A stretch of 64,000 nt of DNA. It comes from Candidatus Tenderia sp. (GTDB lineage: Bacteria; Pseudomonadota; Gammaproteobacteria; Tenderiales; Tenderiaceae). Shown here piece by piece: positions 21,278 to 44,799 of this stretch. Where the stretch lies: the NCBI GenBank assembly GCA_031416075.1, contig JANOSY010000088.1, forward strand, positions 9,504-73,503, read 5' to 3'. Numbering within the stretch: the first letter of the stretch is position 1; every line of letters begins with the position of its first letter. Under the pieces are notes generated by a model that worked only from the letters and a program-made list of their open reading frames with translations, did no database searches and had not been told where the DNA came from. The translations under genes were made by a program, and so were the position numbers.

Positions 21278-22387
21278 CTATTTCAACAACGTCACTGCTT
21301 CAACATAGGGATAGCCCAGATTCTCGGCCACCGCCCGGTTTGTCACCTGGCCACGGTAGAGATTAAGGCCGCTCCGCAAACCACTATTATTCACCAGCGC
21401 CCGCTCCCCTTCCGCCGCCAGCTGCATGGCATAAGGCAGGGTGGCGTTGGTCAGAGCCAGGGTCGCAGTACGGGCGCAGGCACCGGGCATATTGGTGACG
21501 CAGTAGTGAACCACCCCTTCGTCGATATACATAGGCGCAGAGTGGCTGGTTGGACGCGAGGTTTCGATACAGCCTCCCTGGTCAATCGCAACATCCACAA
21601 TCACCGCCCCCTGCTGCATCTTTTTCACCAGCGCCCGCGATACCAGCTTGGGGGCAGCATGGCCGGGGATCAACACCGCACCGATCAACAAATCGGCCTG
21701 TGGCAACAGCTCTTCCAGCGCATAAGATTCCGAGTAGCGGGTTTTAAGCGCCGGGCCAAACAGGTCATCGAGCTGCCGCAACCGCTGCAAGCTGCGGTCA
21801 AGCACCGTCACATCGGCCCCCAGCCCCAGCGCCATTTTGGCCGCCTCGGTGCCCACCACACCGCCACCAATGATCACCACTTTGCCCCGCGCCACGCCCG
21901 GCACACCGCCGAGCAACACCCCCCGTCCGCCATTGATCATCTGCAGACCGGCGGCACCTGCCTGAATGGCGATACGCCCCGCCACCTCACTCATCGGAAT
22001 CAACAGGGGTAACTGGCCGTTGGCATCGGTGACCGTTTCATAGGCAATGGCCACCACTTTGCGCTCAAGCAGATGGCGAGTCTGTTCAGGATCCGGGGCA
22101 AGGTGCAGGTAGGTGAAGAGCAGCTGCCCTTCGTGCAGCATGGCAAACTCACTGGCTTGTGGCTCTTTAACCTTCACCACCATGGGGCAGCTGTAAACCT
22201 CTGCCGCTGTGGCAACAATCGTCGCCCCCGCATGGCGGTAATGGTCATCCACAAAGCTGATCACCTGACCAGCACCGCTCTGTACCCACAGCTCATGGCC
22301 AGCGGCCACCAGTGCCTTAACCCCAGCGGGTGTCACCCCCACACGAAACTCGTGATCTTTTATCTCTTTTGGGACACCTATTTTCAT
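21278..22387 (-). CDS. ald: alanine dehydrogenase
   Basis: MKIGVPKEIKDHEFRVGVTPAGVKALVAAGHELWVQSGAG… with a Rossmann GGGVVGTEAA. Confidence 0.9.
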   Translation of the reverse strand: MKIGVPKEIKDHEFRVGVTPAGVKALVAAGHELWVQSGAGQVISFVDDHYRHAGATIVATAAEVYSCPMVVKVKEPQASEFAMLHEGQLLFTYLHLAPDPEQTRHLLERKVVAIAYETVTDANGQLPLLIPMSEVAGRIAIQAGAAGLQMINGGRGVLLGGVPGVARGKVVIIGGGVVGTEAAKMALGLGADVTVLDRSLQRLRQLDDLFGPALKTRYSESYALEELLPQADLLIGAVLIPGHAAPKLVSRALVKKMQQGAVIVDVAIDQGGCIETSRPTSHSAPMYIDEGVVHYCVTNMPGACARTATLALTNATLPYAMQLAAEGERALVNNSGLRSGLNLYRGQVTNRAVAENLGYPYVEAVTLLK

Positions 22388-22794
22388 TGGCCGACTTTGG
22401 CGCTCCAGGCACGCAGCACCGATTGCGCCAGCGTCATTGGATCAAAGGGCTTGGCAATCACTTCAATGGCACCCAGGGATTTAAAGTGCGCCACCTCTTG
22501 TGGCTGCACCTTGGCGGTCATAAAGATCACCGGCACCTGTGCCAATTCGGGGAGTTTACGCAGTTCTGTCAGCGTGGTTGGGCCATCCATGCCGGGCATC
22601 ATCACATCCAAAAGCAGCAACTGCGGGGCAAAGGCCACCGCATTGGCCACCGCCTCTGCGCCCGCACTAAAGACTGCCAGCTCAAATCCACCCACCGCCT
22701 CCAAAGCAATCTTGGCGATTGCCTGAATATCCGGTTCATCCTCTACATACAAAATCCGTTTCAGTTCAGATTGACTCAATTGTAACCCCTCCAT
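22384..22794 (-). CDS. single-domain response regulator (CheY-like receiver)
   Basis: 136 aa, …ILYVEDEPDIQ…LLLLDVMMPGMDG…FMTAK… Its stop overlaps the ald start by 4 nt. Confidence 0.8.
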   Translation of the reverse strand: MEGLQLSQSELKRILYVEDEPDIQAIAKIALEAVGGFELAVFSAGAEAVANAVAFAPQLLLLDVMMPGMDGPTTLTELRKLPELAQVPVIFMTAKVQPQEVAHFKSLGAIEVIAKPFDPMTLAQSVLRAWSAKVGQ

Positions 22795-22814
22795 GAATGG
22801 CTGTTATTTTAAGC

Positions 22815-23903
22815 TTACCGGTAAATTTCACCCTTATCAGGCTCAGCATACTCCGCATTGATCGCCAGGATCTCAGGGAGCTTCTCCATAAACAGTTCAA
22901 TAAGCCGTGGCTGAAAATGGTGGCCAGACTCCTTTTGCATATATGCCACCGCCTCTTCGACCGGCCAGGCATGTTTGTATGGCCGTACTGAGGTCAAGGC
23001 ATCAAAAACATCTGCCACCGCCACAATTCGCCCCACCAGCGGAATCTGCTCACCACTAAAGCCGCTAGGGTAACCACTGCCATCCCATTTTTCATGGTGT
23101 GTCAGGGCAATCTCGCTCGCCATCGCCATCATCTCTGAATCATCCCCGGAGAGGATATCCGCCCCGATACGTGCGTGGCCCTGCATAATCGTCCACTCTT
23201 CCGCATTGAGCTTGCCCGGTTTTAATAGAATCTGATCAGGGATACCAATTTTGCCGATGTCATGCATGGGGCTGGCGTTCAGCAGCAGCTCACACTGCTC
23301 TTCATCCAGCCCAAACGCCCGCCCCAGCAGCGCAGATATCTTGCTCATCCGCAAAATGTGCATCCCAGTCTCATTATCACGATACTCGGCCGCCCGCCCC
23401 AGCCTGCGGACCACCTGCAGACGGGAGTCCTGCAGCTGCAACGTACGCTCCAGCACCCGTTCTTCGAGCTGCATGTTCTGTTGTTGCAAACATTTATGTG
23501 CCAGGCGCATCTCCAGCAGATTACGGACCCGCATCGCCAGCTCAAAACGGTCAAACGGTTTTGTCACATAGTCACGAGCACCGCCCTGCAGCGCCCGGAC
23601 TCTAAATTCCTGAGAGGACTGGGCGGTCAGCATTAAAATGGGGGCAAGGTTGTCGCCATGTTTAGCCTTCAGTCGCGCCATCACATCAAAACCATCCAGG
23701 TGCGGCATATTGATGTCGAGCAGCAACAGATCGACGTGATGCTGCTGGTAGAGCCGCTCCACCTCGCGTGAATCTCCAGTGGCAACCACATTGGTATACC
23801 CCTCCGCAGCCAGAATGCTGTTGAGCAGACAGATATTAACCGGCTCATCATCCACCACCAGAATCGACGCTGACTTTGTGTCCATATCAACCAGCTGCAT
23901 CAC
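22815..23903 (-). CDS. response regulator with HD-GYP c-di-GMP phosphodiesterase domain (RpfG-like)
   Basis: An N-terminal receiver (ILVVDDEPVN…LLLLDINMPHLDG) is followed by HDIGKIGIP…HHEKWDGSGYP (HD-GYP). Confidence 0.85.
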   Translation of the reverse strand: MMQLVDMDTKSASILVVDDEPVNICLLNSILAAEGYTNVVATGDSREVERLYQQHHVDLLLLDINMPHLDGFDVMARLKAKHGDNLAPILMLTAQSSQEFRVRALQGGARDYVTKPFDRFELAMRVRNLLEMRLAHKCLQQQNMQLEERVLERTLQLQDSRLQVVRRLGRAAEYRDNETGMHILRMSKISALLGRAFGLDEEQCELLLNASPMHDIGKIGIPDQILLKPGKLNAEEWTIMQGHARIGADILSGDDSEMMAMASEIALTHHEKWDGSGYPSGFSGEQIPLVGRIVAVADVFDALTSVRPYKHAWPVEEAVAYMQKESGHHFQPRLIELFMEKLPEILAINAEYAEPDKGEIYR

Positions 23904-24023: not shown

Positions 24024-24497
24024 TTATTTGCGGCGTTGACGAAAAAAGCCGGTCAACAACATCGAGCACTCTTGTTCGAGCACCCCCCCCAGCAGTTCGG
24101 CCTGATGGTTGTATTGCCCCGAATTCAATACGCTAAAGCGGCTGCCCGCTGCCCCCCCTTTAGGATCATAAGCGCCAAATACTACCCGCGCCACCCGTGC
24201 ATGAATAATCGCACCGGCACACATGGTGCATGGCTCGAGGGTAACATAGAGGGTAGTATCGATCAGACGATAGTTGGAGAGCGCCTGACCGGCGGCGCGT
24301 AACGCCTGCATCTCGGCATGGGCAGAAGGGTCGCTGTTGATGATCGGGCGGTTCCACCCCTCGGCGATCAGCTGGCCATGCCTGACCAGCAGCGCCCCCA
24401 CCGGCACCTCGCCTTCACGTCCGGCCTGCTCGGCAAGACGCAGCGCACGGCGCATCCAGTAGTGGTCCGGCGATTCAAGCGTGAGGACGTCAGCCAT
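24024..24497 (-). CDS. tadA: tRNA-specific adenosine deaminase
   Basis: …HAEMQALRAAGQ…LYVTLEPCTMCAGAI… CDA zinc motifs. Start was set at the internal ATG (MADVLTLESPDHYWMRRAL…). Confidence 0.9.
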   Translation of the reverse strand: MADVLTLESPDHYWMRRALRLAEQAGREGEVPVGALLVRHGQLIAEGWNRPIINSDPSAHAEMQALRAAGQALSNYRLIDTTLYVTLEPCTMCAGAIIHARVARVVFGAYDPKGGAAGSRFSVLNSGQYNHQAELLGGVLEQECSMLLTGFFRQRRK

Positions 24498-24825
24498 TAG
24501 AAACAGCTCCAATAACATTCCGGGCGGCCCGCACCAACTCATCCAACCCCTGTTTGTAACCCTTCATCTGCTGGACAAACGGCTCGTCAGGCACGGCATC
24601 AAGGGCGGCATCAAGGGCCTGGTTCACTGCCAGACGGGATGGCTCAATCCGCTCCCCTTTCAGCAGACGCATCACACAACCAGCAATGTGGCTATCGTAC
24701 GCCACCAGACCAGACTTCAGCCCGGCGGTGGCCACTGTCGCCCCGCTCGGAAAGGGGCGCTGCTGATGTATTCCAAACAGCCGCTCAAGCTCGCTCATAT
24801 CTGCATCTGCGCTAGAGGTCGCCAT
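24490..24825 (-). CDS. hypothetical 111-aa protein, translationally coupled between the 812-aa gene and tadA
   Basis: The ORF's start overlaps the stop of the upstream 812-aa ORF (ATGA-type), and its stop overlaps the tadA start by 8 nt. No recognisable family. Confidence 0.55.
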   Translation of the reverse strand: MATSSADADMSELERLFGIHQQRPFPSGATVATAGLKSGLVAYDSHIAGCVMRLLKGERIEPSRLAVNQALDAALDAVPDEPFVQQMKGYKQGLDELVRAARNVIGAVSNG

Positions 24826-27263
24826 CAGCTGTACCAGAACGAGTAGATGGCACCGGTTGGGGTGAAGGTGCCCCCCGGTGGACCCTGGATTTTTCTGCTG
24901 CTACGCCCCTCCTCATCTGTCCAGGCAAAATCACCGCCACCGCCCCAACAGGCCTGGGCATCCTGGGTATACTGCTCAACACTCTGTCCGGCCCCATGTT
25001 TGTTGTGATGGTAGAAGATGCTCTCCATGGCATTGGTAAATGAACCTTGGCTCCAGCCCCCCTTGGAGAGGTGGGCACCCACAAGAACCGGCAGATTTTT
25101 ACCCGGATGGGCCTGAATCAACCCCTTCAACACATCAATGCCATCACCATTACCCAAGTTCAATTGGTGATAGGCCGCAAGTACGGCGGTCGGGGTGGTG
25201 CTGCTATTGCTTACCATACTCCGAATCACTGCATCAGAGGCCAGACCCAACAAGGTGATCATGTCGGCCACCACATACCCCTTTGTCACCAGCCACTCCT
25301 CAAGCACATGTGCAGTAAAACCATCAGGGCGCGCAAGCAGGATTCTAAGCTGGGTAGAGTCGGCCTTGGTATACAGCTTCAACAGGGTTGCCGGATTGGG
25401 TTCATTAAAATCAACACGATCCAGCAGGAATACCAGATCGTCAGTGCTCCCTTTTTTGAGGAGTTTGGTGAGCTGTGCCTGGCTGACCTTGTCGCCAATC
25501 AGGCCGAGCAACGCCTCACTATCCTCAAGATTGCCTGCGCCGTGGGTAAGCGCCCAGGCGCTCATCTCCACGCCATGGGCATTACAGAAAGTAGTTAATT
25601 TTTTGACCGATACCTGTCCGACGGTGACGGCACGGTGCAACGCATCCAGGGCGTCGCCAAAAGGGAGCTGTGTATTCAAAAAATTGATGATCTCCGCTCC
25701 CTCTGCTGGCGCGGCGGCCATAGCGCTGGCCACCTTCAGGAGCTGGGGTGTCGCAACCCTGGCCGTAAGCTGATAACTGGCCACACTACGCGCTATCAGG
25801 GGGTCACAACCGGCCTGAATGGCAATCTCCAGCGCCTGTTGCAAGGTGGCAATGCCCGTGGCTACAGAGGTGAGTCCTATGGCCCACTGCGCCCGATCCC
25901 GCTGGTCAAGCCCTGTCAACTGCGCACTGGTTTGCAACGCCGCCAGGGCCTCGGCAACCGGCTCCCGGCCACTAGCCAGCTGTAACGTCCAGCCCGCAAG
26001 TTCAACCCCGAGGCTGACACTCCAGCTGACCATAAACCCGCTCATCTCATCATGGCGCTGCTTTTTAAGGCCCGGTTTCTGGCCATCGGCACCGGTAATC
26101 TTCGTCTCCTCCAGCAGAATATTCGCCTGCCCCTGAGTCCGGCCATCACTGTCAATTCTCCAGCCATTGACGCGGTCATCGTACGCCCCCTTCTTCTCCT
26201 TTTTTCCACGTACAGGCTTGCTGCCCGGATCAGCGGGAAGTCCGCTCTCCAGCCGCAGCTTCTCGGTCTGGGCATCCTGCTTGATCTTGTCCACCCCCTC
26301 CTGCGCGAGGGTATCGGACTGGCTTTCAGACCACCCCTCCAGCGCAAGGTCATAACCCCAAGTAGCCAACGTGGTCATACGCCCCGCAGCCGCGCTGATA
26401 TCAAATCCCTCTTCACTCAGCACCTGCTCAGAGACCACATCCGCCTTTGGATTGGCGCTGTAACTCGTCAGATACAGGGCAACATTAGCAGCGCTGGCAG
26501 CACTATTATGGACCAGTGGACAGGCACGATTCACAAGTGCGGCGGCACCACCGCCCGCCACCTGCAGCAGCTGTCCGAGTGCAACAAGCTGTGGCACCGC
26601 CTGATCAACCCCGCCACACCGCGTACCCAACAGCAGTACCAGCTCCGCCAATGACGGACTATTGTTGGCCGCAGTCAGGGCCGTGAGCGCGGGCTGAAGC
26701 GCGGCATGTGCAGGCACGGCCGCCACGGAGAGCTGCCCGCCAAGCTGGATGAGATTACGGATGTTGGCACCGAGGGTATCGCCATCGGTGCTGGGGGCGG
26801 TCAGGCAGTCGTTATCCAGCTGGGTTCGCAGGGCATTCCAGTTGCTCACCGCCGGGTTGCCCAACTCCAGCAGCAGGCGGGCGGGCCAATGTTGTTGTAG
26901 TGTACTGAAGTCAGTACTGGCCTGCTGCACAGCCACTTGACCTAGAATAGTGGTTTTTCGATTGGCAACGATCATCTGGGCGCGGGTCAAGTCGAGCGGG
27001 GTGCCACGACGCTGAAGGGGGGCCTCCCGTAGCTGCAAGGCGCTGCCAAAGGTACGGGAGAGCTGCTGGCGCTGGGCCACCATGCCAGGGCTGGCATGAA
27101 TACTGGCGGCCAACCGACGCTGGGCAGTGGCGGCGGGGCGATTATCAACAAACAGGGGGTTCGCTGATGGTACACGGGCATCCTCAGGCTCAGATGCCGG
27201 ATGGCGGTTCTGCCGCTCTGTTGATCTCTGTCCTGAATCCCGCATCCTGCGCCCACCATTCAT
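24825..27263 (-). CDS. large uncharacterised Ala/Leu/Gln-rich protein (812 aa); possible secreted effector/toxin-like protein
   Basis: Continuous 2.4-kb ORF with a basic, Gln/Arg-rich N-terminus (…AQRRLAASIHASPGMVAQRQQL…) and a long low-complexity helical middle. It has a distinct C-terminal region (…FYHHNKHG…CWGGGG…) and no housekeeping homolog recognised. Confidence 0.6.
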   Translation of the reverse strand: MNGGRRMRDSGQRSTERQNRHPASEPEDARVPSANPLFVDNRPAATAQRRLAASIHASPGMVAQRQQLSRTFGSALQLREAPLQRRGTPLDLTRAQMIVANRKTTILGQVAVQQASTDFSTLQQHWPARLLLELGNPAVSNWNALRTQLDNDCLTAPSTDGDTLGANIRNLIQLGGQLSVAAVPAHAALQPALTALTAANNSPSLAELVLLLGTRCGGVDQAVPQLVALGQLLQVAGGGAAALVNRACPLVHNSAASAANVALYLTSYSANPKADVVSEQVLSEEGFDISAAAGRMTTLATWGYDLALEGWSESQSDTLAQEGVDKIKQDAQTEKLRLESGLPADPGSKPVRGKKEKKGAYDDRVNGWRIDSDGRTQGQANILLEETKITGADGQKPGLKKQRHDEMSGFMVSWSVSLGVELAGWTLQLASGREPVAEALAALQTSAQLTGLDQRDRAQWAIGLTSVATGIATLQQALEIAIQAGCDPLIARSVASYQLTARVATPQLLKVASAMAAAPAEGAEIINFLNTQLPFGDALDALHRAVTVGQVSVKKLTTFCNAHGVEMSAWALTHGAGNLEDSEALLGLIGDKVSQAQLTKLLKKGSTDDLVFLLDRVDFNEPNPATLLKLYTKADSTQLRILLARPDGFTAHVLEEWLVTKGYVVADMITLLGLASDAVIRSMVSNSSTTPTAVLAAYHQLNLGNGDGIDVLKGLIQAHPGKNLPVLVGAHLSKGGWSQGSFTNAMESIFYHHNKHGAGQSVEQYTQDAQACWGGGGDFAWTDEEGRSSRKIQGPPGGTFTPTGAIYSFWYS

Positions 27264-27332: not shown

Positions 27333-28904
27333 TCACTCCCACTCGATGGTGCCGGGCGGTTTACCGGTAATGTCATAGACAACCCGTGAGATACCGGCCA
27401 CTTCGTTCACAATACGGCGCGATACATGGTCGAGAAAAACGTAGGGCAGATGAGCCCAGCGGGCAGTCATAAAATCGACGGTCTCAACGGCACGCAGTGC
27501 CACCACATATTCGTAACGACGACCGTCCCCGGTAACACCAACGGATTTGACTGGCAGAAAGACCGCAAACGCCTGGGATGTTTTGTCGTACAGCTCATGT
27601 TTACGCAGCTCTTCGATGAAGATGTGGTCCGCCAGACGCAGAATATCCGCGTACTGCTTTTTCACTTCACCCAGGATGCGCACCCCCAGACCGGGACCAG
27701 GGAATGGGTGACGATAGACCATCTCGTAGGGCAGTCCCAGCTCAACACCCAGCTTCCGCACCTCATCCTTAAACAGCTCACGCAGCGGTTCCAGCAGCTT
27801 GAGCTTCATATTCTCCGGCAGACCGCCCACGTTATGGTGCGATTTGATGACATGGGCCTTGCCATTTTTAGAACCCGCCGACTCAATCACATCGGGGTAG
27901 ATGGTCCCTTGCGCCAGCCACTTGGCTGAGGTGAGTTTGTGCGACTCTTCATCAAAGATCTCCACAAACAGGTTGCCGATCACTTTACGTTTCTTCTCGG
28001 GATCACTGACACCCGCCAGGGCATCCAGAAAACGCTGCTCCGCATCAACACGGATCACCTTGACGCCCATATGCTGGGCGAAGGTCGCCATCACCTGATC
28101 CCCTTCGTTGTAGCGCAACAGGCCATTATCCACAAAGACACAGACCAGCTGTTTGCCAATCGCCTTGTGCAGCAGCGCCGCCACTACCGAGGAGTCAACA
28201 CCACCAGAAAGCCCCAGGATCACCCCATCACTACCGACCTGCTCACGAATAGAGGTGATAGCCGCCTCCGCGATATTGTCCGAGGTCCAGCTAGCACCAC
28301 AGCCACAGATCTCATGCACAAAACGCTCGAGGATGCGCTGCCCCTGACGGGTATGGGTCACCTCGGGGTGAAACTGGACGCCGTAAAAATGACGCGCCTC
28401 ATCGGCCATGCCGGAGATGGGGGCAGATTCAGTGGAGGCCATCAGTCTAAAGCCCGGCGGAATCACCACCACACGGTCGCCATGGCTCATCCAGACATCA
28501 AGAATGCCGTGCCCCTCATCCGTCGACTGGTCTTCAATATCATTTAACAGCGCCGTATGGCCAAAGGCACGCACTTCGGCGTAGCCGTACTCGTGGTGAT
28601 CCGCATTTTCAACCCGCCCCCCCAGCTGCACCGCCATGGTCTGCATCCCGTAACAGATGCCAAAAACCGGCACCCCCAGCTCAAATACCAACGCCGGTGC
28701 GGTCGGGGCATCGGTCGCTACGGTGCTCTCCGGTCCACCGGAGAGGATGATTCCCTTGGGGGCAAAGGCACGAATATCGGCCTCAGCCATATCCCACGGA
28801 TGCAATTCACAATAGACCCCCGCTTCACGCACACGGCGACCAATCAGCTGGGTGTACTGAGAACCAAAATCGAGAATCAAAATACGATCAGAGTGGATAT
28901 TCAT
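27333..28904 (-). CDS. guaA: GMP synthase (glutamine-hydrolysing)
   Basis: [38 protein letters not shown]… matches full-length GuaA (523 aa). Confidence 0.95.
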
Positions 28905-28983: not shown

Positions 28984-31009
<2,026 letters not shown>

Positions 31010-31492
31010 ATGAAGATAGGCAATCTCATCACCCTACTACTGCTGGCACTGTCAGGCATCGGAGCAGCATTGGCCGACGGCGGCATTGAACTCACCATGG
31101 TCGCTCAGGAGCAGATCATCAGCCAGGATGCCAATGGCAAACAGGTAATCACCCTAACCAACCCCGCCTCTGTTGTGCCCGGCGACACCATTGTCTACAC
31201 CACCCACTACCGCAACAAGGGCAAAGTAATTGCGGAAAACGTGGTGATCACCAATCCCATCCCCAGCGACACCGCCTATATCACCCACAGCGCTTCCCAG
31301 GCAAATGCCAGCGTCAGTTACTCCGTGGATGGTGGCAAGCAGTTTGATACTCCGGCCAACCTGACCATCACCGGCAGCGACGGCAAACCACGCCCCGCCA
31401 CCGCCAATGACTACAGCCATATTCGCTGGACCCTGAAAAGCATCGCGCCCGACGCCAGTGGCAGTGTCAATTTTCACGCCCTGGTGCGCTAA
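31010..31492 (+). CDS. small secreted DUF11-repeat protein (160 aa)
   Basis: The ATG at 31010 has an AAGGAG SD and encodes signal peptide MKIGNLITLLLLALSGIGAALA. The DUF11-type motif is PGDTIVYTTHYRNKGKVIAENVVITNPIP. The track ORF starts upstream at 30935. Confidence 0.75.
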   Translation: MKIGNLITLLLLALSGIGAALADGGIELTMVAQEQIISQDANGKQVITLTNPASVVPGDTIVYTTHYRNKGKVIAENVVITNPIPSDTAYITHSASQANASVSYSVDGGKQFDTPANLTITGSDGKPRPATANDYSHIRWTLKSIAPDASGSVNFHALVR

Positions 31493-31709
31493 GCCAAACA
31501 GACAATGAGGCATTTAAACATGGACCGCAACCCACCCACCAACAGCGCCTGCCGGGCGTTTTGTGACATTAAGATCCTGGCCCGAATCCGCGGATCACCG
31601 CACTGACGACCACCATTGTTTCAATCTGACACGCAATAGAAGTTATCAGATGGGCGCGCGGGAAGTGCGCCAACCGAATCAGGGAAGATCCAGACAGGAG
31701 ATTACGAGG

Positions 31710-32771
31710 ATGAATAAAATACAAACTAACCACAAAAGGCTCAGCATCGGCGTTGCCGGTTTGATGATTATGGCCGCATCACCACACGCCCTGGCGTTAA
31801 CCGCCTCCGGCACCAACATCAGCAACAGTGCAACTGTCAATTATAATGTCTCGTCCACCCCACAGACCGCCATCACCAGCAATACTGAAACATTTATGGT
31901 CGACGCCAAGGTGGATCTGACCGTTGCCGGCACAGGGGGCAATATCAACGTCACCCCCGGCACCACCGCACAGGTGTTGAAATTCACCGTCACCAATACT
32001 GGCAACGAGGCGTTTGACTACGCCTTAAGCGCTGTGGCAGGGACCTTGAACTTCACCCCCACCAACGTCGCCATCTACGTGGATGATGGCGATGGTATCC
32101 GTAATGGCGCTGATACATTGACCAGCACCATCACCAATCTGGCAGCAGGCCTCGGCAAGGTGGTCTTTATCCAGGCCGACATCCCCGCCGGTGCCACCAA
32201 TACCCAGACGGCCAGCTACAACCTGAAGGCAGTGGCTGCCCTGGCCAGTGCGGCCGGGCCCATTCCTGCGGAAGCGGCTAACGTCAAAACCACCAAGCAG
32301 TATGTCTATGCCGACGGTGCTGGCAGTGCCCCAGGGGATGCCACACGGGACAAGACCCACTCCACCAGTCTGACCTACACGGCGGTCACCTCATCCCTGA
32401 CCATCAGCAAAGCATCCGCCGTGGTCTGGGATCCGGTCAATCTCGGTGTCAGCCCGCTGCATATCCCCGGCGCAGTGGTGGAATACACCATCACCATCAG
32501 TAACGGTGCCGGTGGCGCTCAGGCCGATGCCATTGTGCTCACCGATACCCTGGCAGCCAATCTGACCATCCCCCCTACCAGCAATAACTTTGCTGCTGGC
32601 AGGTCGATGCAGATCACCTCACCCAACCTTTACTCGGGTGCGGCAACGGCCCTGACTGACGCCAGTGATGCGGATCAGGGGACGGTGGCCGGGCAGCTGG
32701 TGACCGTCAACGGCATTGTGTTGACGGCCGGACAGTCGGCAACCGTCAAAATCAGGGCTGAAATTCAGTAA
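31710..32771 (+). CDS. secreted DUF11-repeat protein (353 aa)
   Basis: The ATG at 31710 (AGGAG SD) encodes signal peptide MNKIQTNHKRLSIGVAGLMIMAASPHALA. The C-terminal DUF11 motif is SPLHIPGAVVEYTITISNGAGGAQADAIVLTDTLAANL. The track ORF starts at 31563. Confidence 0.75.
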   Translation: MNKIQTNHKRLSIGVAGLMIMAASPHALALTASGTNISNSATVNYNVSSTPQTAITSNTETFMVDAKVDLTVAGTGGNINVTPGTTAQVLKFTVTNTGNEAFDYALSAVAGTLNFTPTNVAIYVDDGDGIRNGADTLTSTITNLAAGLGKVVFIQADIPAGATNTQTASYNLKAVAALASAAGPIPAEAANVKTTKQYVYADGAGSAPGDATRDKTHSTSLTYTAVTSSLTISKASAVVWDPVNLGVSPLHIPGAVVEYTITISNGAGGAQADAIVLTDTLAANLTIPPTSNNFAAGRSMQITSPNLYSGAATALTDASDADQGTVAGQLVTVNGIVLTAGQSATVKIRAEIQ

Positions 32772-32776
32772 CGCTG

Positions 32777-35700
32777 ATGTCCTGCACTGTTGTAAGGGCA
32801 ATCACAGCTCTCTGTCCCGGCCCACTGGCCGGGCAGCGGGCCCCCTTACACCTTTATATAACAACCCTTCTTGGATTCCTGGTACTGCTCTGGTCAACCA
32901 CGACCCTGGCCGTCCCCCCTGGCACCATCATCAGCAACGTTGCCAGCATCAATTACACCATTGGCGGCCTACCCGGTCTGCCACTCAGCTCCAACATCGA
33001 TCAATTTACCGTGGTCGCCGCCGCCAATACGGTGGATGGCACCATGAGTGTGGCCGCGCCAGGCGGTAATCTATATGCCGGTTCGCCCCGCGCCACCACC
33101 ATCACCCTTAACAATACCGGCACCACCCTGCTGAACAATCAACAACTTACCATTACCGCACCGCTTAACAGCCAAGTAACACTGACCGGCAGTGGGGTCA
33201 CGCTGGCCGCTTCCATGAGCAGCAGCACTACCACCACCTACATTTTTAACGTGGCAGATCTACCGGTTGCTGGCAGTCAGGACCTCCAGCTGGTACTGAC
33301 CGCAGCCCCCACCGCTGTCAGCCGCCCCCAGACATTCACCGTTGCACACAGTGTTGATGGCACAACACTCCAGCAGCAATCCCTGACACTGAGCGCCTTG
33401 CCACGCACGGCGGCCAGACTGGAGATTCTGCAACACTCCCTCAGTAACAGGGCACTCTCGGCCATCGTCAATTCCACGCTGATCCGGGGGGAGAGCGGTA
33501 CCTTTACCCCCATTGCGCCGCCGACACTGCCGGAGGCACCAGACCGGCTAGTGACCGACAGCCCCATCACACTGGAGCCTGCCAACGTATTCAGTAATAT
33601 CCAGACGCTTTTTATCCGGGTCACCGATCTGGATCAAAATCTCGACAGTACGGTTCAGGAGAGTCTCGACATCACCATCAAGCTGCCCGATCGAGACGAC
33701 TATGTCACGCTGCGAATCCTCGAAACCGGCATCGCAACCGGCATCTTCAGCGGTTACGTCACCTTTGAAAAAAACAGCGCCACCAGCAGTGGCGCGCTAC
33801 CGGTCAAAAGCAATTCCAAGCTGCTGGTCAGCTATACCGATACGATCGATGGTGACGACAGTGTCGCCGAGACCGTGCTGATCGACCCCTACGGCGTGGT
33901 ATTTGACAGCGCCACCGGCCAGCCACTGGATGGTTACACCGTACAGATGGTCAACACCGATACCGGCCTGCCCGCCACGGTCTATGGCGATGACGGTGTC
34001 AGCAGCTACCCCGCCACCGTGATCACCGGCAGCCCGGTGACCGACAGCAGTGGCAACCTCTACAGCTACAATACCGGCGAGTACCGTTTTCCACTGGCCC
34101 CAGCGGGTAATTACAGACTGGTCGTCACCTCACCCAGCAGTGCCCAGTATCGCTGGCCCTCAACCCAGTCAACCGAACAACTCCATAACCTCTCCCGCAG
34201 CAACCTTGCCATCACCCTCGGCTCGCGGGGTGAGCGCTTCCCGCTGCTGCCAGGACCACCGCTGCATATTGATATTCCTGTGGATCCGCTCACCACCCAG
34301 CTCTACCTCCAGCGCAGTGCCAACCGCGAGAGTGTCGCGACGGGTGACCTGATCCGCTACAGCGTCCAGGTTGAGAACAGCACCGCCACCACCCTCAACG
34401 ATGTGGTGCTGACCGAGTCCCTGCCCCACGGTTTCCGCCTGGAGCCAGGCTCCATCAACATGGACAACAACCCGCAACAACCCGCCACCATTGAGCCACA
34501 AGGTACAACCTTCACCCTGAATCTCGGTGCCATGATCGCCGGTGAGCGCCGCCAGATCCGCTACGTCAGCGCCGTGGGTGCAGCACGCCAAGGACTGGCC
34601 AGCAGCAGTAGCCACGCCCGCGCCAACAGCGGTGCCGCCAACTCCAACCACGCCAGACACGATGCCATGGTGTTTGATGAGTTGATGCGTGGCCGCGCCC
34701 TGCTGCTCGGGCAGGTCATTATCAACCCCACCGACAACGACCCCACCCCCGCCAGCGGCTTAAAAGGGGTGCGTATCTATATGGAAGATGGCCGTTACGC
34801 CATCAGCGATGAACGGGGCATGTTCCATTTTGACAACCTCACCCCCGGCAACCATCTAGTACAGCTCGATACCGCCACCCTGCCAGACCACTATTCGCTG
34901 GTGATGGGCGACCAGGACACACGCAACGCCCACAGCCCCAGCTCGCAATTTATCGACCTGCAGGGCGGCACACTCTGGCGTACAGAGTTCCACGTTGCCC
35001 GCAAGCCCACCCCCACGGGGGCGCTATCACTGCAACTCAGCAACACCGCACCCGACAGCCAAGGCAACATCCCCTATCAGGTAACGCTGGAGAACCGGGG
35101 TGTCAGCGCCAGCAACCTGCGGTTAACACTCATGATCCCCGCCACCACCCACTACCAGCCCGGCAGCAGCCACGTTGGCGGCCACCCCGTTGGCGATCCT
35201 GATATTGTCGGCAACGTGCTCATTTATCGCCTGAACAACGACCACCCAAGCGGTGGCTGGCAACGTCAGCTCCACCTCACCCTGCAGGGCGACACTGGCA
35301 ATAGTGCCAGTGGTGACAGCCGCGAATTGACCACCAAGGCGTCACTCCAGTTTGATACCCCCGCCCAGCAGAACCAGCGCCTGCCACTGCTGCAACATAC
35401 CTTTACACTCACCACGGAACAGGTCAAACAGGGGGAACAGAAGGTCCTGGCCGAAAGCCTCACCCTCGACAACTTCAACGGCAGCAGCAATGACCTCAGC
35501 GAGGAGCATAAAACAGTCGTGCAACAGCTGGCAGAACGCTGGGCCGGCCAGGATATCCACATCCACGCCATCGGCCACAGCGACAGCCGGGACATTATTC
35601 AGAAGGAGAAGGAGGACCAGCGCCTGTTTGCCAACAACCAGATCCTCTCTGAATATCGCGCCCATGAGGTCGCTAACCAGCTCCGCCAGCAGCTCTCCCT

Positions 35701-38700
35701 GCCAGCCAACCGCATCTCCTTTGAAAGCAAAGGGGAGGACGAACCTGTCGCCAGTAATGCCACATCGGCGGGTCGAGCGACCAACCGCCGGGTAGAGCTT
35801 CATATATATAGCGTGATCAGCACCACAACCCCACATATCCACGGTACTGCCACCACCAGTGAGCGTCTGAGCAGTACCATCACCGGCCTTACACCCGGTG
35901 AACAGCCAATAACCACCGCGACCGTTACCACAACCACGGAGTACAACAGCCAGTGGCTCGCCAGCCAGACCGCCAGTATTGAGTGGCTGCTGCCCCAGGA
36001 GCGACCCGCGCTCCCCACCACCAACATCGCCATCAAACACCACAGCGACCAGAACGTCACCCTCACCCTCAATGGCCAGCCCGTGGCCGCCATGAACTTC
36101 AACGGCACCCTCAACAACAGCCATGGTGCTGCCGTCAGCCACTGGGCCGGGGTTGATCTGAACGAGGGCGACAACCTCTTTCATGCCACCATCAGCAATG
36201 CCCAAGGTGAGTTTATTCAACAACTTAACCGCAACCTGCACTACTCCAGCGCCCCCGTGCGGGCAGAGATTGTGCCAACGCTCTCCACCCTCATTGCCGA
36301 TAGCATCACCCCGCCGGTCATCGCCGTACGCCTGTATGACAAAGACAGCCACCCCATCCACGCCGGCATGGAGATTGAGTACCAAATCAGCCCACCGCAC
36401 CAGCCCGCCCAAGAGAGTTTTAATACCGACAACATGGTTGCCGCCCCTGGCAGACGCCACTACGCCACCTCCGACAATGATGGTCTCATCCTGATCAAAC
36501 TCGCCGCCACCAACAGCACCGATGATCTACGTCTGCAGCTGCCCCTGGCCCACAACCGGACCGTAGAGTTAAAGAGCCGTCTCCAGGCCAAGGCCCGCGA
36601 CTGGATACTGGTGGGGCTTGCCGAAGGGGAGGCCGGTTTTAACAGCCTGAGTGGCAATATGGAGGCGCTCGACGGCAACGCCGCCCAGGATCATCTCTAC
36701 CAGGACCAACGTATCGCCTTCTTTGCCAAAGGCCAGGTGCTGGGTAAATGGCTGCTGACCCTGGCCTACGACTCCGATAAAGCACAACCACAAAAACAGG
36801 GGAACGATCCAGCGCTGTTCCAGGCCATCGACCCCGGCAGCTACTACACCGTCTATGGTGATGCCGGTCAAAACGGTTTTGATGCCGCCAGCAGCAAAAA
36901 GCTCTACCTCAAGCTGGAGCGCAACGCCTTCTACCTGCTCTTTGGCGACTACCAGACCCAGCTCAGCGAGACCCGTCTGGCCCGCTACGACCGCACCCTG
37001 ACCGGCATAAAGTCCCGTTATCAGAATGAACAATACAACCTCATGCTCTTTATCAGCGAAAACAGCCAATCCTTTGCCAAGGATGAGCTGCGCGGCCAGG
37101 GCAGCACCGGCCCCTACCCGCTGTCACGCAGCAACGTCGCCCTCAACAGCGAAAAGGTAGTGCTGGAGGTGCGCGACCGTTTCCGCAGCGAACAGATTGT
37201 CAGCAGCACACTGCTGGCGCGCCACAGCGACTACGACATCAACTATCTGGAGGGCAACATCACCTTCCGCGAGCCGGTATTCAGCACCGATGCCAACCTC
37301 AATCCGCAATACATCGTCATCAAATATGAGTCCTACACCGGCGACAGCCAGACCACCATCGGTGGCCGGGCCGAGGTGAAGGTCAACGACCAGCTCAAGA
37401 TCGGCGTTACCCAAGTGAGTGAAGGGCGCGCTACAGGTGATGCCCTGCTCGGGGCCGCCGATCTGCAATACAAGTTCAACGATGCCACCACCCTGCGCCT
37501 TGAGACGGCCCGCAGCCTGATTGCCGACGAAGGCAGCGGCAACGCCTATCTTGCCGAAGTTGAACACCAGACCGTCAACAGCAGTAGCAAACTCTATCTG
37601 CTGGATAACGACACCCATTTTGGTCTGGGACAAACCAACGCCAGCGAAAATGGCATGTACAAACAAGGGGTTGAGACACAGCTGCGAGCCAGCGACAATA
37701 TCAACATCAAAGGCCAGCTCTACCGCCAGGAGAGCAGCCTCAGCCACGCCAGCCGTGACCTGGCCGAGGCACAGGGCGAGATCAGCCGCGGCACTACCCG
37801 GCTGCGCGCCGGCCTGCGTGAGGTGCAGGATCAGCGCGGCGACAACAGCCAGCAGCAGTCGGAACAGCTCACCACCGGCATCAGTCAACAGCTGCTGGAC
37901 AGTAAGGTGACCCTGCGGGCCGACCGCGAGATCAACCTCAACAATGGCAATGACAGCATCGACTTCCCCGACAAAACCCGGCTTGGGGCCGACTACCACA
38001 TCACCCAGAAGATCAGCCTGTTTGCCGAACAGGAGGTGGCCAACAGCGACCTCCGCGATACCCGCCAGCGCCGTCTTGGTATCAAATCAAACCCCTGGAA
38101 CGGCGCGGAGATTTACAGCGGCCTGAGCCACTCCAGCAGTGATAACGGCACTGCAACCAGCGCCAATGTCGCCGCCCGCCAGCGCTGGCAGCTCAACCCA
38201 CAGTGGAGCGTTGATGCCGGTATCGAGCAGTCCCAAACCCTAAGCCAGAATCTGAACCAGAACCAAAGCAGCGGCCCAACCCTCAGCCCACCTGCCGCCA
38301 CGCCGTTCAACCTCAACAGCGGATTTGCCATCGGCAGCAACGAAGATTTCAGCGCCGCCTCCTTGGGTGTCACCTATAGCGACAAAGGGTGGCTCTGGAG
38401 CAGCCGTGTCGAGTCGCGCACCGGTGATCTGAGTGACCGTCGCCGCCTTGCCACCTCAGTACAGACATCACCACACAACGACCTCTCCATGCTCGCCTCC
38501 CTCAACCTGCTCACCAGCAGCAGCGCCCAGGGTGAACAGCAGGATAGCTCAACGGTGCAGCTCGGGGCCGCCTACCGCCCCAGCAATAGCCGCTGGCTGC
38601 TGCTGGATAAACTGACCCTGAAAAAAGAGCGCCATAACAACAGCACCCTCGACAGCAGCGGCTGGCGCATCATCAACCTGTTCAATGCCAATTACCGAGA

Positions 38701-39073
38701 AGGGCGCTGGCAGACATCGCTGCAATACGGTGCCAAGAGTGTTAAAGAGACCATCGACGGCAACGAACATAACCAGTTTGTTGACCTCAGCGGCATCGAG
38801 AGCCGTTATGATCTAACGCCAGAGTGGGACATCGGCCTGCATGGCAACATCCTGCACGCCTGGCAGCTCAACCAATATAACTACAACAGTGGTGTCTCGG
38901 TAGGCCACACCGTGGCCAAAAACATCTGGCTGAGCCTTGGCTACAACTTCAACGGCTTCCGCGACAGCGACTTTTCGCGCAGCAGCTATACCAGTCAGGG
39001 GCTGTTCCTCCGTTTCCGGATGAAATTTGACCAAACCACCGTGAAAGAGGCGATCCAGTGGGCCAGCCAATGA
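32777..39073 (+). CDS. giant (2098 aa) surface protein: N-terminal DUF11/Ig-like repeats, carboxypeptidase-regulatory-like domain, internal OmpA-like peptidoglycan-binding domain, C-terminal ~1000-aa beta-strand-rich (putative outer-membrane barrel) region
   Basis: DUF11 motif ATGDLIRYSVQVENSTATTLNDVVLTESLPHGF; CarbopepD-reg-like GVRIYMEDGRYAISDERGMFHFDNLTPGNHLVQLD. OmpA-like …GHSDSRD…NRRVELHIYS; C-terminus has alternating amphipathic strands ending …GLFLRFRMKF. Confidence 0.8.
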   Translation: MSCTVVRAITALCPGPLAGQRAPLHLYITTLLGFLVLLWSTTTLAVPPGTIISNVASINYTIGGLPGLPLSSNIDQFTVVAAANTVDGTMSVAAPGGNLYAGSPRATTITLNNTGTTLLNNQQLTITAPLNSQVTLTGSGVTLAASMSSSTTTTYIFNVADLPVAGSQDLQLVLTAAPTAVSRPQTFTVAHSVDGTTLQQQSLTLSALPRTAARLEILQHSLSNRALSAIVNSTLIRGESGTFTPIAPPTLPEAPDRLVTDSPITLEPANVFSNIQTLFIRVTDLDQNLDSTVQESLDITIKLPDRDDYVTLRILETGIATGIFSGYVTFEKNSATSSGALPVKSNSKLLVSYTDTIDGDDSVAETVLIDPYGVVFDSATGQPLDGYTVQMVNTDTGLPATVYGDDGVSSYPATVITGSPVTDSSGNLYSYNTGEYRFPLAPAGNYRLVVTSPSSAQYRWPSTQSTEQLHNLSRSNLAITLGSRGERFPLLPGPPLHIDIPVDPLTTQLYLQRSANRESVATGDLIRYSVQVENSTATTLNDVVLTESLPHGFRLEPGSINMDNNPQQPATIEPQGTTFTLNLGAMIAGERRQIRYVSAVGAARQGLASSSSHARANSGAANSNHARHDAMVFDELMRGRALLLGQVIINPTDNDPTPASGLKGVRIYMEDGRYAISDERGMFHFDNLTPGNHLVQLDTATLPDHYSLVMGDQDTRNAHSPSSQFIDLQGGTLWRTEFHVARKPTPTGALSLQLSNTAPDSQGNIPYQVTLENRGVSASNLRLTLMIPATTHYQPGSSHVGGHPVGDPDIVGNVLIYRLNNDHPSGGWQRQLHLTLQGDTGNSASGDSRELTTKASLQFDTPAQQNQRLPLLQHTFTLTTEQVKQGEQKVLAESLTLDNFNGSSNDLSEEHKTVVQQLAERWAGQDIHIHAIGHSDSRDIIQKEKEDQRLFANNQILSEYRAHEVANQLRQQLSLPANRISFESKGEDEPVASNATSAGRATNRRVELHIYSVISTTTPHIHGTATTSERLSSTITGLTPGEQPITTATVTTTTEYNSQWLASQTASIEWLLPQERPALPTTNIAIKHHSDQNVTLTLNGQPVAAMNFNGTLNNSHGAAVSHWAGVDLNEGDNLFHATISNAQGEFIQQLNRNLHYSSAPVRAEIVPTLSTLIADSITPPVIAVRLYDKDSHPIHAGMEIEYQISPPHQPAQESFNTDNMVAAPGRRHYATSDNDGLILIKLAATNSTDDLRLQLPLAHNRTVELKSRLQAKARDWILVGLAEGEAGFNSLSGNMEALDGNAAQDHLYQDQRIAFFAKGQVLGKWLLTLAYDSDKAQPQKQGNDPALFQAIDPGSYYTVYGDAGQNGFDAASSKKLYLKLERNAFYLLFGDYQTQLSETRLARYDRTLTGIKSRYQNEQYNLMLFISENSQSFAKDELRGQGSTGPYPLSRSNVALNSEKVVLEVRDRFRSEQIVSSTLLARHSDYDINYLEGNITFREPVFSTDANLNPQYIVIKYESYTGDSQTTIGGRAEVKVNDQLKIGVTQVSEGRATGDALLGAADLQYKFNDATTLRLETARSLIADEGSGNAYLAEVEHQTVNSSSKLYLLDNDTHFGLGQTNASENGMYKQGVETQLRASDNINIKGQLYRQESSLSHASRDLAEAQGEISRGTTRLRAGLREVQDQRGDNSQQQSEQLTTGISQQLLDSKVTLRADREINLNNGNDSIDFPDKTRLGADYHITQKISLFAEQEVANSDLRDTRQRRLGIKSNPWNGAEIYSGLSHSSSDNGTATSANVAARQRWQLNPQWSVDAGIEQSQTLSQNLNQNQSSGPTLSPPAATPFNLNSGFAIGSNEDFSAASLGVTYSDKGWLWSSRVESRTGDLSDRRRLATSVQTSPHNDLSMLASLNLLTSSSAQGEQQDSSTVQLGAAYRPSNSRWLLLDKLTLKKERHNNSTLDSSGWRIINLFNANYREGRWQTSLQYGAKSVKETIDGNEHNQFVDLSGIESRYDLTPEWDIGLHGNILHAWQLNQYNYNSGVSVGHTVAKNIWLSLGYNFNGFRDSDFSRSSYTSQGLFLRFRMKFDQTTVKEAIQWASQ

Positions 39074-39092
39074 CAACCGCCACAACATCAAC

Positions 39093-42000
39093 ATGGACAG
39101 TACGATGAGATACGGACGTTTTATTCAGCTCTGCCTGCTGGCCACCCTGCTGCTGGTGGTACTTTTGCCTCGTCCAGGGGTAGCGGCCATCACCGCCACC
39201 ACCCTATTTGAAGGGTCAACGGATGGCGATGCCAGCGCTTATACTGGACCCTCACTCAGCCCGTCGGCCAACAACCTGATTCTCGTCTGGATAACCAATA
39301 CCCGCTCCTCCTCCCCCACCGTGCCCACCTTTACCGGTAACGGCCTCACCTGGGTGCAGGTCGCCACCGTCACCTGGGGCAGCAGCGGCTCCCCCACCGC
39401 ACGTACCACCCTGTTCCGGGCCATGGGATCCTCCCCCGCTACCGGGATCAACAGCATCGATTTTGCCGGCAATACCCAGACCGGCGTGGCGATGTCAATG
39501 ATCCAGTTCAACAACGTCGACATCACCGGCAGCAACGGTGCCAACGCCCTGGTTCAGAGTGTCACCGGCAGAACTGATAGCGCCTCCTCCACCGCCGGGC
39601 TGAGCCTCACCCTGGCAGCGCTGGGCAATGTTGCCAACGCCTCTGTGGGCGGCTTTTCCAACTTTATCAACTCCGCCACCTCCATCTCCCCAGGGTCCGG
39701 CTACACCGCCTCGTCCGGCACCACCTATCTGGCCCCCAGCATCAGCCTGCGCGCCGAGTGGAAGAGTGCGGGCAGCACCATCGTCAACGTCACACAGAGC
39801 GGTACCTCCCACATTGGCGGGATCGCCGTCGAACTCAAGGCCGACCTCTGTGCCGGCAATGTGGTCACCACCATCGCCAACAGTGGTGATGGCTCCCTGC
39901 GTGAATGTATCATCAAGGCCAACCTCAACCCCGGCACCACCATCACCTTCAACATTACCGCTGCGGCCAACCAATCTTCCGGTGCCAACTCATGGTGGCG
40001 TATCACCCCCACCACCGCGCTACCCACCATCACCGCTGCCAATACGGTGATTGATGCCACCACCCAGACCAGTAATCGTGGCAATACCAATACCCTCGGC
40101 CCGGAAGTTGAACTCAACGGTGCCACCGTCGGTGCCGGGGGGTGGGACGGTTTTGGTGTGGCTTCGCCAGCCACCGGAGTCATCATCCGCGGGTTCATCA
40201 TCAATCAGTGGTCAGGGTCAGGTATCTCACTCTGGAGCGGCAGCGGCACCATCAGGGGCAACTACATCGGTACCAACTACGCCGGTACCAGTGCCCTGGC
40301 CAATACCAGCTACGGCCTCTACCTCAATACCAATGGCAATACCGTCGGTGGCACCAGTGCTGCGGACCGTAACGTCATTGCCGGTAACGGCGGGCCTGGC
40401 ATCTACATTGTGAGCAACAGCAATACCGTGCAGGGCAACTACATCGGCGTCAACGCCAGTGCTGGGGCGATAGTTGCCAATAGTGGCCACGGCGTACAGA
40501 TACTCTCCGGTGCCACCGGCAATACCATTGGGGGCACAGCGGCGGGGGCAGGCAATGTGATTGCTGGCAACGGCGCTGATGGCATCAACCATAGTTCAAC
40601 AGGCAGCAATACCGTACAAGGCAACTACATCGGTACCAACGCCAGCAGCGCGACACTCTCTAATGGTGGCAATGGCATTGCCATCTCTGCCGGCACACTC
40701 AATGTGGGCAACGCCTCTGAATCCCAATCAAACATTATTGGCCCCAACAGTGGTGCGGGCATCAACCTGGCGGGCGGAACAGTGAATCTGGCAGGCAGTG
40801 TCACCGTGCGTGGCAACATGGCCCTGGCCAGCGGCACACTCGCCATGGGCAGCGCCACACTCAACCTCTCCGGTAACTGGAGCCGTACCAGCACCACCGT
40901 CACAACCGGCACCTCCACCGTGGTGCTCAACGGCACTGCCCTGCAGAGCCTGACCATGAACGGCAGTAACTTCAATAATCTGACCATCACCAACGGCAGT
41001 GTTGCAGGTATCAGTTTTAATGATGGTTTTAACGCCGCCAACATCACCAATACCACCCCCGCCTCCCGGCTGACCTTTAAGGCGGGCGCAACCTACACCC
41101 TCTCCGGCACCCTGACACTGGTCGGCAGCAGTGGCAACCAGATCATTCTGCTCAGCGACTCCCCCGGCACCCGCTTTACCCTGAACCCAACTGCTGGCGC
41201 GCAGAGTGTCAACTATGTCAACGTCAAGGATTCACAGGCCTCAACCAACAACATCACCGCCGATAACTCCACCAACAGTGGTGGCAATGATGATGCCGAG
41301 GCCGCACCACGCTGGGTCTTTAATGCCCCCGATACCACGCCGCCCGCCAGGATCATCGACCTGACGGTCACCTCCTCCACCACCTCATCCATCACCCTGA
41401 ACTGGACTTCACCGGGAGATGACAATAACAGTGGCACGGCTACCAGCTATGACCTGCGTTACTCCACCTCGCCCATCACGGCGGGCAACTGGGCCAGCGC
41501 CACACAGGCCGTTGGCGAACCAACACCCTTGGTGGCCGGTAGCAGCCAATCATTTAGCGTGACCGGCCTGGCCGCTGCCACCACCTACTACTTTGTAATG
41601 ACCACCAGCGATGAGGTCCCCAATACCTCCGCCCTATCTGACTCAGCGGTTGGCACCACCGGCGGCGGTGGTGGCGGCAATGTGAGCTACTACGCCAAAC
41701 GCAGTAACAGTGTCTCCATCGCCTCCGGCATCACCAGCAACAGCGGCTCCTGCGGCACAGATCCAACCGCCTACTACATTGAAGAGCTGTCAAAAAACAT
41801 CAGCGACATGTGTGTCACAGCAAATGCCTACCGCTGGGAGCAGTTGACGGCCGGCAGCTACTCGGACCACTACTTCAACACCGCCTATGTGGCCAATACC
41901 ACCGTTACCGGCGTCTCTTATCAGGTCACCATCCGCGACAGCGGAACAGTAGGTTTCCAGCTTTTTTATGTCACCTCCGGCGGTACCAAAACCTATCTTG

Positions 42001-44711: not shown

Positions 44712-44799
44712 CCCAGATGTACATTGGGGTGGTGTCCTGAAACCGAGGCACCGCCCATGGTATGCTCTCTTCCCTTGCAACAACCCTGACCCTCTCACC

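Follow-up and report, generated by a model that had tools for sequence, protein, structure and literature searches.

A probable polymorphic toxin-immunity gene pair between guaA and tadA in Candidatus Tenderia

The window analyzed here, a 64,000-nucleotide stretch of Candidatus Tenderia sp. DNA (contig JANOSY010000088.1, positions 9,504 to 73,503), carries a large and a small gene between guaA and tadA. All genes from guaB to tadA lie on the minus strand. The guaA gene (27333..28904), identified as GMP synthase by Pfam GATase and GMP_synt_C and preceded upstream by guaB (28984..30444), is followed after a 69-nt gap by the large open reading frame (ORF), whose longest form (24825..27263) encodes 812 residues rich in alanine (13.3%), leucine (12.1%), glycine (9.1%) and glutamine (6.7%). 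Its TGA stop codon (24825-24827) shares one base with the ATG of a 111-aa ORF (24490..24825, in the program-made ORF list) at a TGATG junction (24823..24827). The end of the small gene in turn overlaps tadA by 8 nt at a ATGGCTGA junction (24490..24497). The tadA gene (24024..24497), for the 157-aa tRNA adenosine-34 deaminase, matches the NCBIfam equivalog NF008113 at 223 bits and starts with the ATG at 24497; its longest ORF begins at 24542, and the 157-aa start is favored by the NCBIfam TadA match and by the gene calls of homologs. A first-pass annotation of the window, made from the letters alone, had described a three-gene chain, and the two overlaps confirm it. No terminator-like sites were found between guaA, the gene pair and tadA by a terminator scan, and a promoter scan returned no promoter-like sites.

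The large gene probably starts at its second ATG (27245, residue M7), because homologs and gene calls begin MRDSGQ and a Shine-Dalgarno-like GGTGGG lies upstream of this codon, with nothing comparable before the first ATG. The length of 812 aa given in the first-pass annotation thus stands for the longest ORF, but the protein would be 806 aa, encoded by 24825..27245. Residue numbers throughout refer to the 812-aa ORF. Both ORFs are real genes, since homologs exist and since the ratio of nonsynonymous to synonymous substitution rates (dN/dS), measured relative to a sister locus (L001, from the Gammaproteobacteria metagenome-assembled genome ND3_Bin_17), is 0.20 in the large gene and 0.41 in the small gene. 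The tadA gene is a housekeeping neighbour that lies outside the two-gene module.

Family scans (Pfam, NCBIfam, PADLOC, PHROGs) matched neither protein. When 5.8 billion clusters were searched by word index, only 4 homologs came up for each of the two proteins, with only the 8000 candidates sharing most words scored for the large protein, and an exhaustive profile search yielded a few further full-length orthologs. That search, which ran a profile of 5 full-length proteins against 1.84 billion representatives, returned 145 matches. About 40 of them were confined to profile positions ~5-88, in each case at the N terminus of the matching protein, and about 90 covered only positions ~728-806, nearly always at the extreme C terminus. 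Nine proteins (P0009 to P0017) matched the middle and the C terminus together (positions ~200-805). As read from the alignments, these three classes of match are those of a recombinational mosaic, as expected for polymorphic toxins.

The N-terminal leader (residues 7 to ~92; 26988..27245) was delimited by its homology to the N termini of the ~40 proteins of the first class. It is about 85 aa long, is rich in Arg, Ala, Gln, Pro and Ser, contains the motif FVDNRPAATAQRRLAASIHASPGMVAQRQQLSRTFG in the window protein, and was modeled by AlphaFold2 with a predicted local distance difference test score (pLDDT) below 40. The N-terminal matches align sharply over F[VI]DNRPEA[IV]AQR[RK]L..AIH.SP.MVAQRQQL...FG. 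An eCIS_core (DUF4157) domain, named for extracellular contractile injection systems (eCIS), follows the leader immediately in 20 of the 40 carriers; the resemblance to DUF4157-type effectors suggested for this N terminus in the first-pass annotation is therefore one of homology. In three members of the same protein family as the window protein (P0003, P0009 and P0015), DUF4157 is present and its HExxH is intact; several others lack the domain. The leader has no signal peptide or clear membrane segment, and no PAAR, VgrG, MIX, LXG, signal peptide or two-partner-secretion domain was found in the large protein by Pfam, NCBIfam or sequence analysis.

DUF4157 occupies the N terminus of many toxins associated with eCIS, and the linkers are often very long (PMC8213781; PMC3482391). 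In AlgoCIS, cargo cannot be loaded into the tube without the disordered region that precedes DUF4157, DUF4157 itself can be dispensed with, and loading leaders are reported to be system specific (bioRxiv 10.64898/2026.05.27.728243). The window protein shares with the DUF4157 or "PVC-metallopeptidase" toxins, such as AlgoCIS Cgo1 and Cgo2, a probably disordered N-terminal leader homologous to that of many DUF4157 proteins, a long linker and a variable C-terminal toxin region (PMC8213781; PMC3482391; bioRxiv 10.64898/2026.05.27.728243). One metagenomic contig (L011, 1920-9951) encodes four consecutive DUF4157/eCIS_core proteins (406, 902, 775 and 262 aa), all with the window-type leader and followed by astacin- and amidase-type genes, an arrangement that resembles an effector array; no structural genes of an injection system are present on this 16.7-kb contig. 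Six relatives (P0010, P0011, P0013, P0014, P0017 and P0018) begin with LQRxxGNxAVxxL(L/M) and not with the DNRP...AQR leader, which suggests, at the level of sequence, that at least two interchangeable leader types occur on one toxin body.

The middle region (residues 93-723; 25095..26987), about 630 aa, is predicted to be all-alpha, with confident AlphaFold2 modeling only for residues 310-590. It accompanies the C-terminal domain in ~14 proteins. The helical character noted in the first-pass annotation stood, but the low complexity did not, as ordered helices are predicted. No recognizable relative of this region was found, and Foldseek gave no meaningful resemblance to entries in the PDB. 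Foldseek matches of the full-length AlphaFold model (pLDDT 56) were rejected as generic helical repeats and designed proteins, and weak matches of the full-length alignment to beta-phosphoglucomutase and Hsp82 in a PDB profile search (E>=0.03) were treated as chance. Residues 226-244 (approximately nt 26532-26588) form an Ala/Gly/Leu-rich segment, LVALGQLLQVAGGGAAALV, whose maximal Kyte-Doolittle 19-residue mean of 1.68 is marginal for a membrane-inserting helix; this segment could matter for translocation.

The C-terminal domain (residues 724-812; 24828..25094), defined at ~89 residues by iterative local hidden Markov model (HMM) searches of the retrieved proteins, was found in 109 proteins, 84 of which stop exactly at the domain end; clustered at 50%, the family comprises at least 109 representatives. 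In 94 full-length carriers, the scaffolds recognized by Pfam were RHS repeats (11), PT-HINT (7), eCIS_core (2), DUF6531 (2), RHS core (2) and PT-TG (1). A single C-terminal domain thus occurs on unrelated N-terminal regions, as in polymorphic toxins, and the proposal that the last ~90 aa form a toxin-like module fits this position at the extreme C terminus of RHS, PT-HINT, PT-TG and DUF4157 proteins. No Pfam family was found on the domain itself: 75 isolated domains searched at E<=10, with Ntox35 included, gave only scattered chance matches. A word-indexed search with the 89-aa alignment returned zero matches, but it also missed the 4 known full-length homologs and so says nothing about absence.

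AlphaFold, run on an alignment of 75 sequences, predicted a domain of three helices followed by four strands (pLDDT 94.9), a fold like that of the BECR (Barnase/EndoU/Colicin/RelE) RNase toxins. In three independent comparisons, the first-ranked solved structure was 8EY4, the CdiA-CT toxin of E. coli O32:H37. The profile HMM matched its PDB sequence at E=0.098, aligned over H-x-x-KHG...QY..A, and Foldseek gave a probability of 0.99 and a template modeling (TM) score of 0.54. Colicin D, colicin E5, BrnT and other CdiA-CT tRNases of BECR fold followed. Identity to 8EY4 is only ~15%, so that the window domain belongs to a separate sequence family. Its delivery part, unlike that of CdiA, lacks FHA repeats and VENN, and the putative immunity protein encoded beside it is unrelated to PDB entries. 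More broadly, the hallmarks of contact-dependent inhibition by CdiA (TPS domain, FHA repeats, VENN/PT-VENN) had no Pfam or NCBIfam match.

Conservation across the 109 domains is concentrated on H752 (107/109), H756 (108/109), Y765 (107/109), T766 (98/109), K755 (94/109) and T801 (91/109). These residues, together with W737, S748, Y751, G798 and W810, are near-invariant; S/T741 and F742 are also conserved, and the last strand keeps an S/T ahead of F-W. On the predicted helix that precedes the core helix, H752 and H756 are separated by a single turn, and HHNKH at residue 752 is the sole H..[KR]H motif in the large protein. In colicin-like BECR toxins, the catalytic His/Lys residues are likewise on the helix before the core helix (bioRxiv 10.64898/2026.08.28.747851), and Ntox35 and BECR clades have a signature of "H, KH plus S/T" (PMC3482391; PMC13556192). 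The H/K/H plus T pattern of the window domain resembles this signature in sequence: His and Lys are conserved on the N-terminal helix, as is a residue with an alcohol side chain close to the last strands. The spacing H-x-x-K-H differs from H199...H205 in the S. aureus S8-Ntox35 RNase toxin, and the Ntox35 family HMM was without a match in the 75-domain search. From the modeled fold, the domain probably works by an RNase mechanism. Two other candidates were set aside: an HNH-type "xHH" nuclease reading of YHHNKH was ruled out by the predicted fold, and PT6 (Nachmias et al.), which is fused to DUF4157, was rejected as the same domain, PT6 being periplasmic and blocking cell division.

In all 8 distinct contexts examined, the gene for the C-terminal domain is directly followed by a homolog of the small ORF, often overlapping the stop codon of that gene, although one match was weak. 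With a profile of the small ORF (E values relative to small local databases), the match was 8e-72 at L001 and 3e-30 at L002/L006, where the toxin scaffold is that of the window family, and 3e-49 at L009 and 1e-20 at L003-5, where the toxins (P0009 and P0003) carry DUF4157. Matches were also obtained behind the RHS/DUF6531 protein P0020 (L007/L008; 3e-13), the YD-shell protein P0027 (L095; 3e-9), the RHS/DUF6443 protein P0135 (L010; 1e-5), the CBM96 toxin P0148 (L093; 1e-5), which has a DUF6531 protein nearby on the opposite strand, and P0037 (L094; 4e-3, the weak case). P0020, P0027 and P0135 show that Rhs/YD-repeat toxins carry the same C-terminal domain followed by a homologous small gene; the window protein differs from them in its helical body and in having no RHS/YD repeats, PAAR or DUF6531. 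The small proteins share a conserved core, PFP...L(K)..LV.YD..V.G. Neither the 111-aa protein nor its profile matched Pfam, NCBIfam, PADLOC or the PDB, and no helix-turn-helix (HTH) or ribbon-helix-helix (RHH) match was found in it. The downstream gene thus strictly co-occurs and co-varies with the toxin domain, as a cognate immunity gene of a polymorphic toxin would. The first-pass annotation had left immunity and chaperone functions side by side. Immunity is far the better reading on this pattern, because the small protein tracks the toxin tip across unrelated scaffolds and not the leader or the scaffold.

The order guaB-guaA-toxin-small ORF-tadA, with identical overlaps, was found in three lineages: the window, L001 and a metagenome scaffold (L096/97). 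The TGATG overlap is present in these and in L002 and L006, and the ATGGCTGA overlap at tadA in L001 and L096/L097. Elsewhere the distribution is scattered. In a Rhizobacter metagenome-assembled genome the two genes are kept together beside a GH94 cyclic-glucan-synthase-like gene, at the P0003 locus they lie between a GH3 glycosidase and an LTD-domain protein, and at the P0009 locus (L009) they lie inside an array of DUF4157 proteins. Orthologs thus occupy at least four different contexts, and the distant ones do not adjoin tadA. Judged by gene order, the pair is a mobile two-gene unit, because distant orthologs keep both genes together in other neighbourhoods, and a single gammaproteobacterial lineage probably acquired it by insertion into the guaBA-tadA region. 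Any functional weight placed on the tadA linkage, which is specific to this lineage, has to be tempered. Neither plasmid nor phage tblastn searches gave a match to the pair, and nothing convincing was seen among flanking direct or inverted repeats that might be insertion scars. P0037, a carrier of the same C-terminal domain (L094, 3001-6207), adjoins a BrxR/WYL-type regulator and a phage AlpA-like gene, a context that is defence-island-like or mobile and unlike the RHS or DUF4157 contexts.

The pair has also evolved faster than its surroundings. Between the window and L001, eight flanking genes are 97.0-99.6% identical in amino acids (dN 0.002-0.015, dS 0.13-0.33, dN/dS 0.01-0.12), with tadA at 97.5%. 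The whole toxin gene is 84% identical (dN 0.095, dS 0.47) and the immunity gene 83% (dN 0.082, dS 0.20), so that the dN of the pair is ~10 times that of the flanks. Within the toxin, residues 341-717 (window 25095-26240) stand out (dN 0.17, dS 0.97, dN/dS 0.17), with dS of 0.14-0.35 in the rest of the gene. The dS of 0.97 suggests that recombination replaced this segment with that of a divergent allele. Constraint is strongest on the toxin tip (dN 0.03, dS 0.35, dN/dS 0.08). By these rates both genes are clearly functional and fast evolving, which contradicts a housekeeping role.

Taken together, the large and small proteins very probably form a toxin-immunity pair, given their modular homology and linkage. 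The fuller explanation, to which we give a probability of roughly 0.7, is that they are an orphan polymorphic-toxin/immunity pair of the DUF4157-associated ("PVC/eCIS-type") class, lodged between guaA and tadA. In this proposal, the poorly structured Arg/Gln/Ala-rich leader would serve as a loading or trafficking signal into a phage-tail-like contractile particle encoded elsewhere in the genome, and the ~630-residue helical middle would possibly be a spacer or translocation aid. The 89-residue BECR tip would be an RNase that needs no metal and employs H752, K755 and H756, on the helix ahead of the core helix; the conserved Y765, T766 and T801 would be close by. The 111-aa protein, translationally coupled to the toxin, would bind and block it both in the producing cell and in its sisters. 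The delivery route through a contractile injection particle, which is proposed by analogy, is plausible but may as easily prove wrong as right.

Several observations weigh against this explanation. No contractile injection system, type VI secretion system (T6SS) or other export machinery is encoded in the window, the rest of which holds ABC transporter genes, PpiD, Lon/ClpXP/Tig, xseA, PNPase, IF-2, NusA and a DUF11-type surface cluster; the toxin gene therefore lies neither in nor beside a contractile-injection operon within these 64 kb. As the first-pass annotation had noted, and as a sequence check bore out, the large protein has no HExxH; it has no Pfam match to DUF4157, and neither do its neighbours. 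In these respects the window protein differs from the DUF4157 toxins. A further difference is the immunity gene beside its own; many PVC-type toxins have none. Many carriers of the C-terminal domain are short metagenomic fragments, and Pfam names a scaffold in only ~20 of 94. A scan of metagenomes with the HD-GYP regulator from next to the operon turned up no empty guaA-tadA site: of 80 loci, 79 held paralogs in non-syntenic surroundings, and the sole syntenic locus (L013) begins inside tadA. Finally, no paper on the activity of 8EY4 was found in the literature searched, and for this reason the RNA target is a guess; by analogy it would most likely be tRNA or another RNA of translation.

Among the alternatives, the one that survives best keeps the same toxin-immunity pair but has it exported otherwise than by extracellular contractile injection, through a T6SS, by lysis or vesicle release, or by another pathway that recognizes the leader. 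The window has no injection-system genes and its large protein has no DUF4157, eCIS_core goes undetected in half of the leader carriers, and the same C-terminal domain is found on RHS/PT-HINT toxins, whose usual route is T6SS or another one. However, the leader is tied to eCIS_core in the other 20 of 40 carriers and in whole arrays, and none of the PAAR, VgrG, MIX, LXG, signal peptide or two-partner-secretion features was found. We consider such export unlikely.

An intracellular module is less probable again. In this alternative the pair would be a toxin-antitoxin or abortive-infection system that is never exported, its BECR RNase being freed when phages attack or stress sets in. Toxin-antitoxin systems and Menshen-type defence commonly use BECR RNases (bioRxiv 10.64898/2026.08.28.747851), the pair lies in a housekeeping operon with no exporter nearby, and the L094 carrier stands beside the BrxR/WYL regulator and the AlpA-like gene. 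PADLOC, however, matched neither protein, the leader is common to arrays of secreted toxins, and the C-terminal domain tips exported RHS, PT-HINT and PT-TG toxins. The features of type II toxin-antitoxin systems (RelE/ParE-like) are also missing: the toxin is an 806-aa protein with a leader and a large body, and the inhibitor is encoded downstream and has no DNA-binding domain (HTH or RHH), unlike classical type II antitoxins.

Somewhat more doubtful still is a capture scenario, in which a leader-only, DUF4157-less BECR RNase and its inhibitor were taken into the guaBA-tadA unit and are not, or are no longer, an injected weapon. If so, expression of TadA would be coupled to read-through and translation of the pair, which might act as an operon-embedded addiction module or as a growth switch linked to nucleotides or tRNA. 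The toxin would then possibly target a tRNA related to tRNA-Arg, the substrate of TadA. Colicin D, a structural neighbour of the C-terminal domain, cuts tRNA-Arg.

We regard it as very improbable that the genes encode an effector and its chaperone or adaptor, with the small protein aiding folding or loading instead of neutralization. In its favor are the translational coupling of the two genes and the lack of immunity genes for many eCIS toxins (PMC3482391; PMC8213781). The small protein nevertheless follows the C-terminal domain, being present after leaderless RHS/YD-shell proteins and not detected elsewhere in the leader-bearing L011 array. The weakest alternative, a conserved protein of housekeeping or envelope type whose function is linked to tadA/guaA, which could draw on the codons overlapping tadA, the lack of a terminator after guaA and the same arrangement in three related lineages, is refuted by distribution and evolutionary rate: only 4 homologs were returned from the 5.8 billion clusters (8000 word-sharing candidates scored), the few orthologs are spread over at least four contexts with the distant ones away from tadA, the pair is 84% identical where its flanks are 97-99% identical and evolves ~10 times faster, and no structural, envelope or housekeeping family was matched in Pfam or NCBIfam.

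The surroundings of the operon have features of their own. Downstream of tadA (21278-23903, minus strand) are an HD-GYP response regulator, a single-domain CheY-like receiver and alanine dehydrogenase, with the receiver and ald ORFs overlapping by 4 nt (22384-22387). Metagenomic homologs of the HD-GYP regulator (57-63% identity) almost never adjoin tadA. Beyond guaB lies a stretch of low GC content (0.44-0.47 at 30000-31500) and a surface-type cluster on the plus strand (30000-47020). Its genes at 30935..31492, 31563..32771, 32777..39073 and 39093..44711 encode, respectively, a 185-aa DUF11 protein, a 402-aa protein without a match, a 2098-aa protein with DUF11, CarboxypepD_reg and OmpA, and an 1872-aa protein with fn3 and purple-acid-phosphatase-N. 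In L096, guaB is likewise flanked by homologous DUF11/CLIPPER genes.

The toxin-immunity pair extends the known catalogue of polymorphic toxins and does not overturn current understanding. Its C-terminal domain, a predicted BECR-type RNase with an H-x-x-K-H signature, is widespread across RHS, PT-HINT and DUF4157 scaffolds and is not in Pfam; the matching immunity family is likewise uncatalogued. The sharply conserved leader motif of DUF4157 toxins is a candidate cargo-loading signal, and eCIS engineering work places the loading signal in the same N-terminal part (bioRxiv 10.64898/2026.05.27.728243). If the proposed explanation is right, effectors can sit far from the injection machinery, within core housekeeping operons, where searches of eCIS neighbourhoods would miss them. 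The main use of the finding is as an addition to the catalogue and as a candidate loading-signal motif.

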